Origin: Escherichia coli
Lineage (GTDB): Bacteria; Pseudomonadota; Gammaproteobacteria; Enterobacterales; Enterobacteriaceae
Direction: 5' to 3' (one strand)
Length of the DNA stretch: 64,000 nt
Assembly (NCBI RefSeq): GCF_003018255.1
Contig: NZ_CP027440.1
Shown here: positions 61,803 to 62,431 of the stretch, piece by piece
Layout of the letters: the number at the start of each line of letters is the position of its first letter
How positions within the stretch are numbered: the stretch's first letter is position 1
The notes under the pieces: generated by a model
What the model saw: only the letters and a program-made list of their open reading frames with translations
What the model was told of the DNA's origin: nothing
The model's database searches: none
Program-made: the position numbers and the translations under genes

Positions 61803-62350
61803 TGCTTACTCATCAAAAGTAGCGCCAGATTCACTGCTCTTCACGGCAGATGGACGCCACATCGATTCATGGGGAGGAATAAAAAAAACCTTACAATCAC
61901 TGTAGAAATTCTTTTATACAGCTAATTGATGTGGTCTTTTACTCCTTTCTATAACCTTTTGTCAACTTTAACAAAAGTTTCTTCACATTAGTTTACATAA
62001 TATCAACACCATTAGCATTTAATGCCCTTTCACCCCAGATCCTTGACGACTCCAGGATAATTAGATGTTGTTGAATCGTGTCCGTTGTGAAGCAATGGAA
62101 AAAATACGGGTCTATTTTGACAGGAATTTGTGTCGATTCCTCCCCCCAAAAGAGAGTATTTTCTTGATCTGTGACACGCTTTTGTCATTCCATAACAAAA
62201 ACGCAGCAACAAATTTACGTATTTTTTAACATCATTGTAGCAGGTGATTTTTTTCAGGCGATTATTTGTGCGTTCGGGACGTGAATCTCTGGTGATTGAA
62301 AAATGAACAGTTTTGTACGTTCTGCACGATACGAGGAAGGCTTTTTACTA
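61803..62350 (-). promoter_or_regulatory. nuo operon promoter / long 5' leader region
   Basis: About 550 bp non-coding AT-rich region upstream of nuoA; individual regulator binding sites not mapped here. Confidence 0.45.
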
Positions 62351-62395
62351 AAAAAAAGCCGCTGGGGTTTAAAACACCCCCAGCGGCTCGTTTTT
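62351..62395 (-). terminator. intrinsic terminator downstream of lrhA
   Basis: A8-GCCGCTGGGG-tttaaaaca-CCCCAGCGGC-TCGTTTTT; on the minus strand the hairpin is followed by a T8 tract. Confidence 0.6.
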
Positions 62396-62431
62396 ACACT
62401 ATTGTCTCAGAAATTATCTATGGTCCGTCGA

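Follow-up and report, generated by a model that had tools for sequence, protein, structure and literature searches.

The 629-bp spacer between lrhA and nuoA, situated near one end of the 64,000-nt window of Escherichia coli DNA analysed here, is very probably the control region of the nuoA-N operon (respiratory complex I), and comprises a terminator, a poorly conserved inner spacer, upstream regulatory DNA, a promoter and a leader. The identities of the genes, the terminator, the pattern of conservation, the transcription starts, the covariation of a hairpin in the leader, the RNA 3′ ends located next to that hairpin and the pairing site of the small RNA RyhB were all established by computation together with published tables.

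According to the called open reading frames and to annotated E. coli genomes that match at 100%, the gap extends from position 61803 to 62431 and is flanked by nuoA (61359-61802) and lrhA (62432-63370, with the stop codon at 62434-62432), both encoded on the minus strand. Of 5426 complete E. coli genomes, 5420 contain the segment 61300-62900 with an identity of 95% or more, annotated as lrhA, nuoA and nuoB. The corresponding spacer of strain K-12 is 630 bp long, differs from ours by eight substitutions and one single-base indel, and has no annotated feature between lrhA and nuoA in the RefSeq record. An earlier note on this DNA had pointed to an unusually long, ORF-free region of about 630 bp upstream of a 14-gene operon. 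The gap is real and its length is indeed unusual, since it ranks second by size among the 46 intergenic gaps of the 50 kb that surround the locus in K-12, where only the gap lrhA-alaA is larger (919 bp) and the remaining ones are below 300 bp. The number of genes needs correction to 13 cistrons, given that E. coli has a fused nuoCD gene. The absence of ORFs is true for long ones and does not extend to short mechanical ORFs, the longest being of 60 aa on the minus strand and of 54 aa on the plus strand. The AT-rich blocks mentioned in the same note are seen as a GC content of 0.28-0.33 at 61900-62049 and of 0.33 at 62150-62249, compared to approximately 0.5 in the flanking genes.

A few observations were made in the vicinity of the spacer. 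The lrhA-alaA gap (63371-64000, continuing past the window end) is very AT-rich, with a GC content of 0.23-0.29 at 63750-63900. In the lrhA leader, Term-seq data contain abundant ‘orphan’ 3′ ends at K-12 positions 2406691 (50 nt before the lrhA start), 2406927 and 2406933, and SMRT-Cappable-seq places starts of lrhA at K-12 2406799 and 2406820. Within the operon, the nuoB-nuoCD gap (60588-60680, 93 nt) has a published 3′ end at K-12 2403873 (approx. 60603 in the window) following the inverted repeat CTTCGC...GCGAAG, and an ‘internal promoter’ between nuoB and nuoC is listed by genomic SELEX.

The scan of one genome per species resulted in 80 enterobacterial loci from approximately 25 genera. 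In all 80 the upstream neighbour of nuoA is lrhA, and the length of the spacer is strongly maintained (median 629 bp; 619-634 bp in 63 loci). Longer spacers of 937, 748 and 747 bp, i.e. 120-310 bp above the family norm, occur in Intestinirhabdus alba, Kosakonia oryziphila and one Buttiauxella agrestis assembly, suggesting insertions in these three. The mean per-position identity to E. coli over the 80 species is 0.62 and is distributed in a patchy manner, with blocks of at least 0.9 identity alternating with stretches of 0.2-0.35. The first approx. 30 nt after lrhA and the segment 62240-62349 are unconstrained (identity 0.2-0.44), and positions 62235-61936 harbour eight blocks of at least 0.9 identity connected by variable linkers. 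Constraint was judged by this contrast within the spacer in place of a neutral baseline derived from fourfold sites of nuoA, which were usable in 32 species only and gave an identity of 0.73 with a codon-usage bias. As a by-product, the base-level conservation map across approx. 25 genera marks the roughly 300 bp that are under constraint.

On the lrhA side, the gap is bounded by the lrhA terminator, as had been proposed earlier. The stop codon is followed on the minus strand by a poorly conserved 3′ untranslated stretch (62397-62431), then by a Rho-independent terminator of the bidirectional type (62350-62395), and by the inner spacer (62240-62349), whose identity to E. coli in 20-nt windows is 0.25-0.44 in the 80 species. 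The terminator is made up of an A run (62395-62391), a stem formed by GCCGCUGGGGG (62387-62377) and CCCCAGCGGC (62367-62358) and a U8 tract (62357-62350), and was also recovered as an inverted repeat with arms at 62349-62367 and 62378-62396. The strong, bidirectional-looking hairpin previously noticed at 62351-62395 proved to be genuine: it folds on both strands with approximately -33 to -34 kcal/mol in a 102-nt context (z of about -4), and none of 200 shuffled sequences was as stable. The stem has approximately 11 pairs, and the hairpin with its U8 tract spans 37-82 nt past the lrhA stop codon. Among 78 species the hairpin and U run occur at a constant distance from that codon (median 79 nt), and in 74 of them the free energy of the hairpin is -12 kcal/mol or lower; the stem sequences vary among the sampled genera. 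The hairpin at 62350-62395 is the terminator of lrhA, and its bidirectional look is due solely to the A run and the T8 that flank the stem. On the plus strand, neither a gene nor a mapped 3′ end converging on it was found in the K-12 annotation and Term-seq data. The Term-seq 3′ end of lrhA was mapped to K-12 2405672/3 (2405672 being position 62401 of the window), inside the untranslated stretch, 31 nt past the stop codon and 12 nt before the A run of the hairpin, and no 3′ end is listed at the U8 tract. We suspect a technical cause, namely that pairing of the U tract with the A run leaves a recessed 3′ end and hinders the ligation of the adapter. A scan of the region against Rfam at a permissive threshold gave no family; the only hit, AaHKsRNA41 on the terminator hairpin, reached 19.6 bits (E = 0.14), whereas the gathering score is 97.

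On the nuoA side, a sigma-70 core promoter with a mapped start is present at 61965-61930. It coincides with a near-invariant block of 62 nt (61936-61997, minus strand), in which the palindrome CTTTTGTTAA-AG-TTGACAAAAG (61980-61953) is placed over the -35 element TTGACA (61965-61960), followed after an 18-nt spacer by the -10 element TAAAAG (61941-61936). The latter is shared by this strain and the E. albertii locus, and reads TAAAAA in K-12 and most other sampled species; the arrangement TTGACA-18-TAAAAA is listed for the lrhA-nuoA spacer by genomic SELEX with the RpoD holoenzyme. SMRT-Cappable-seq of K-12 reported transcripts with nuoA as the first gene and 5′-triphosphate ends at 2405200, 2405210, 2405230, 2405252, 2405377 and 2405497, corresponding to window positions 61930, 61940, 61960, 61982, 62107 and 62227, that is, 128 to 425 nt upstream of the nuoA ATG. 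The start at 61930 (minus strand) lies 6 nt past the -10 element and defines a 128-nt leader, and the minor starts at 61982, 61960 and 61940 fall within the region of the core promoter block. The start at 62107 comes after the conserved TGTCAAAAT, and that at 62227 is preceded by TACAAT, a hexamer without conservation in other species. The possibility of multiple promoters, raised in the earlier note, holds because six starts within the gap are known from the published 5′-triphosphate mapping; the opposite case, a lone start next to nuoA and no structure in the leader, was not observed.

The start-site picture is not fully consistent between methods. In the accessible part of the RyhB study (Chareyre et al.), the numbering G86/C87 fits a +1 at position 61890, and the nuoA-lacZ fusion described as ‘from the +1’ begins at approx. 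62065, just past CGGACACGATTCAACAAC. Neither position, at about -88 and -263 respectively, coincides with any of the Cappable-seq starts, and both may represent processed ends. The accessible part of the Ettwiller 2016 Cappable-seq supplement has no entry for these coordinates. A consensus promoter and terminator scan called none of the elements supported by other evidence: the core promoter was missed because its -10 element ends in G in this strain, and both hairpins were missed owing to a loop of more than 8 nt or an interruption in the stem. The scanner called just two sites, one resembling a promoter on the plus strand at 61312-61339, where nuoA and nuoB meet, and a weak one resembling a terminator within nuoA.

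Upstream of the core promoter, conservation on the minus strand is concentrated in several blocks. The most distal are GTTAAAAAAT and TTGTTGCTGC..TTTTTG (62196-62235), which contain the published start at 62227, followed by the near-invariant block GACAAAAGCGTGTCACAGATCAAGAAAATACTC (62155-62187) with the palindrome TGACA-N6-TGTCA (62187-62172). Next are GGGGGGAGGAATC and TCCTGTCAAAATAG (62112-62147), after which the start at 62107 is located and of which TCCTGTCAAAATAG resembles an extended -10 element (TGnCAAAAT), then CGGACACGATTCAACAAC (62066-62084) and, finally, a block (62010-62028) with the palindrome GCATTAAATGC (62025-62015). Together with the one over the -35 element, the palindromes TGACA-N6-TGTCA and GCATTAAATGC make three that are invariant. 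Judged by their sequence, the palindromic blocks look like sites for dimeric regulators, and the GACAAAAGCGTGTCACAGATCAAGAAAATACTC block is a putative regulator-binding site. Consensus scans for FNR, CRP, IHF, NarL and ArcA resulted only in weak matches (three or more mismatches) or short heptamers. Fnr and NarL are named as regulators of nuo in the literature. ArcA and IHF reportedly also act on nuo, according to papers of the Unden laboratory from 1995 and 1999 (Bongaerts et al., Wackwitz et al.), which are said to be the classic primer-extension and footprint studies; these two papers and that of Zhang et al. from 2004 reportedly deal with the nuoA-N promoter and regulatory region of E. coli K-12. 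We infer that the regulators reported for nuo are the proteins that would occupy the conserved blocks. Multiple Fis sites on the nuo promoter DNA, at upstream positions, are known from other literature and through references in the accessible part of Chareyre et al. 2019 (PMC6497325).

Some further observations concern the same DNA. A Term-seq 3′ end was mapped to 62027 (K-12 2405297), at the upstream edge of the GGGCATTAAATGC block, with an average read count of 31,207 (LB, OD 0.4); some transcripts therefore start farther upstream and stop before the core promoter. The motif TGACAAAAG is present twice, 223 bp apart. Two long-range pairings were considered and rejected. In the first, GGGGAGGAAT (62145-62136) is perfectly complementary over 10 nt to ATTCCTCCCC (61880-61871), located 255 nt away, both being near-invariant in the 80 species; the second, between AAAAAATACG and CGTATTTTTT, spans 109 nt. 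Neither displays covariation: mismatches are uncompensated in the former, and in the latter they are uncompensated or the pairing is low.

The leader downstream of 61930 contains, on the minus strand, a U8 run with the near-invariant pyrimidine block AUUCCUCCCC (61872-61889), perfectly complementary but without covariation to GGGGAGGAAU at 62145-62136, and a two-tier hairpin (61819-61860) immediately followed by the U-rich tract UUUUGAU (61812-61818). The RNAalifold consensus structure has an outer stem GUGGCGUC / GGCGCUAC and an inner stem CUGCC / G.GCAG. In an alignment of 81 sequences, 98.6% of the cells of this hairpin are paired, compared to 16-50% in controls in which the partner was slid by 1-3 columns, and four pairs change on both sides; the compensatory examples, G-C to A-U and C-G to U-A, are from the Enterobacter group, Siccibacter and Trabulsiella. 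The loop varies, and the U-rich tract follows the hairpin in every one of the 80 species. Compared with shuffled sequences, the leader is not more stable (z = -0.95 over 146 nt, z = -1.46 over 69 nt), and the case for the hairpin consequently rests on covariation, not on energy. Its stem is interrupted, the whole structure amounts to approx. -19 kcal/mol, and the tract contains four U in E. coli.

The hairpin and the U tract coincide with mapped RNA 3′ ends in the nuoA 5′ untranslated region. Very abundant ends at K-12 2405086 and 2405082 were reported by Term-seq (Adams et al. 2021, PMC7815308), which correspond to window positions 61816 and 61812, located 14 and 10 nt before the nuoA ATG. 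Their average counts in three growth conditions were 282,730 (LB, OD 0.4), 475,924 and 124,622, with a Rho score of 0.82 (not Rho-dependent) and an intrinsic-terminator score of 11.6 against a threshold of 3 (PMC7815308). We found no discussion or study of a covarying leader hairpin at these ends in the searchable literature; its position at the exact site of abundant RNA 3′ ends makes it a concrete target for a wet-lab test.

Directly abutting the hairpin and U tract on their 3′ side is the ribosome-binding region of nuoA with the start codon (ATG, 61802-61800), which constitutes the RyhB pairing site (61791-61811, minus strand). In the accessible part of Chareyre et al. 2019 (PMC6497325), compensatory mutations prove that RyhB base-pairs with a 21-nt stretch comprising the ribosome-binding site and the start codon. 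This complementarity can be recognised in our sequence: when folding is limited to the RyhB core and the ribosome-binding region, they pair with -19.8 kcal/mol, a value reached by 20 of 1000 shuffles, and G61805 and C61804 match the published mutations G86C and C87G, as far as that part of the paper gives them, if +1 is set at 61890. Unrestricted folding of the RyhB-leader duplex was uninformative because shuffled sequences scored equally well. Among RIL-seq-derived features, the nuoA 5′ untranslated region is a target and not a small RNA. According to the same part of the paper, NADH enters the respiratory chain of E. coli mainly through complex I, whose expression affects the proton motive force and the uptake of aminoglycosides (PMC6497325). 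The possible leader-encoded regulatory element envisaged in the earlier note is supported by a conserved hairpin with a U tract, compensatory changes, abundant 3′ ends and a RyhB site directly after them.

As for the role of the leader hairpin, we infer, tentatively and at a little short of even chances, that it is a stable block to 3′ exonucleases, so that a leader fragment accumulates once the mRNA has been cleaved within its AU-rich ribosome-binding region. In addition, Hfq may dock on the U-rich 3′ flank, beside the RyhB target. Alternatively, the hairpin and U tract could be a true intrinsic attenuator 10-14 nt before the nuoA start, in which case the terminating fraction, possibly regulated, would set the transcription of the 15-kb operon. 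This is possible, with odds clearly against it. A conserved hairpin preceding a U-rich tract in all 80 species would be expected of such an attenuator, as would very abundant 3′ ends placed exactly in that tract, insensitive to the Rho inhibitor and scoring far above the intrinsic-terminator threshold (11.6 against 3). There is also a candidate competing pairing between CCACAUCAAUU (61934-61924) and AAUCGAUGUGG (61867-61857), the first four bases of which are transcribed from the upstream starts only. However, this antiterminator candidate has one compensatory column and many uncompensated breaks. The exonuclease block is preferred because the stem is interrupted, the U tract is short, the 61812 end is situated at the base of the extended helix, and coverage is undiminished downstream, where reads are not below those upstream in the 800-nt coverage windows of the authors. 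Further points against an attenuator are the approx. -19 kcal/mol of the whole hairpin, the presence of four U only, the missing call by the scanner and the good expression of the operon. As regards a sensing element, the leader gave no conserved uORF and no Rfam match. We consider it rather unlikely that 61860-61812 is a genuine regulated attenuator or processing switch, perhaps coupled to the choice of promoter or to RyhB/Hfq; if it were, such a switch would gate the entire 15-kb operon of complex I in Enterobacteriaceae, at the level of transcription or of stability.

Because its 3′ end is abundant, well defined and preceded by a hairpin and U tract, and because Hfq RIL-seq chimeras include the nuoA 5′ untranslated region (1167 fragments), the leader fragment with ends at -10/-14 could be taken for a trans-acting small RNA that originates from the 5′ untranslated region, carries a hairpin-plus-U end of the Hfq type and has its own targets. 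This is improbable, as the region has a single RIL-seq partner, always occupies the target position and has a predicted small RNA probability of 0.005, with no Rfam family and nothing annotated in RefSeq K-12. It is hardly credible that the spacer encodes a small protein missing from the annotation or a leader peptide with a regulatory role. The mechanical ORFs of 60 aa (minus strand) and 54 aa (plus strand) and a 9-codon ATG ORF (MNRCGVHLP, 61870-61841) in the leader would be the candidates; the last is intact in 5% of the species and the other two in 0-3%. The ORFs that are ‘kept’ belong to promoter DNA that is itself invariant and have TTG or GTG as start codon and no Shine-Dalgarno motif, and the variation in the leader affects the hairpin loop and paired positions, a pattern of RNA structure and not of codons. 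The search for small ORFs with Shine-Dalgarno motifs, suggested earlier, thus came out negative, since none combined ATG, Shine-Dalgarno motif and conservation in the 80 species. Equally hard to credit is a length that is mostly accidental, with one promoter near nuoA and the rest unconstrained filler: poor conservation is indeed seen over approx. 110 bp (62240-62349) and in some shorter stretches, but this account is already contradicted by a length held within approx. 15 bp in most of the 80 species and approx. 25 genera, by the approx. 300 bp of near-invariant blocks upstream of the promoter and by the six published starts.

If the spacer is the control region of nuoA-N, its parts would act in the following order along the minus strand. 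The lrhA terminator would insulate nuo from read-through and would be separated by approx. 110 bp of unconstrained spacer from approx. 300 bp of upstream regulatory DNA, composed of short near-invariant blocks, several of them palindromic. There the reported regulators ArcA, NarL, FNR, IHF and Fis would exert their effects, and weaker upstream start sites are located within these 300 bp as well. The core sigma-70 promoter TTGACA-18-TAAAA(G/A) initiates transcription at 61930 and gives rise to the 128-nt leader, in which the conserved hairpin and U tract directly precede a weak ribosome-binding site. RyhB with Hfq pairs at the latter and shuts the operon off under iron scarcity.

In comparison with known systems, the lrhA terminator resembles bidirectional Rho-independent terminators in having a GC-rich stem between an A run and a U run, with a U tract possible on either strand, and differs from them in that this hairpin is of evident use in the lrhA direction alone. 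The RyhB site is unchanged in the window relative to that of the RyhB-nuoA study (PMC6497325), whereas the hairpin and the adjacent upstream 3′ ends go unmentioned in its accessible part. The ends at -10/-14 of nuoA are entries in the catalogue of Adams et al. 2021 (PMC7815308), in which nuoA is unnamed in the main text and the column ‘detected/characterized regulatory element’ is empty for them. The examples characterised there are riboswitches, uORF-dependent attenuators and small RNA sponges, and none of these features was found at nuoA. The cross-genus conservation map and the covariation of the leader hairpin, for which we found no earlier description, are the additions made by this analysis. 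The nuo control region itself has long been studied, and its promoter and regulator part is already known, real but ordinary; our finding is therefore correct yet not new, and, as the nuo region is a textbook example of long bacterial promoters governed by several regulators, its confirmation adds little. The spacer in the window and the K-12 nuoA-N control region are the same locus, with the same long upstream region, several global regulators and more than one start; nothing differs in kind, and the -10 element is TAAAAG here as against TAAAAA in K-12.
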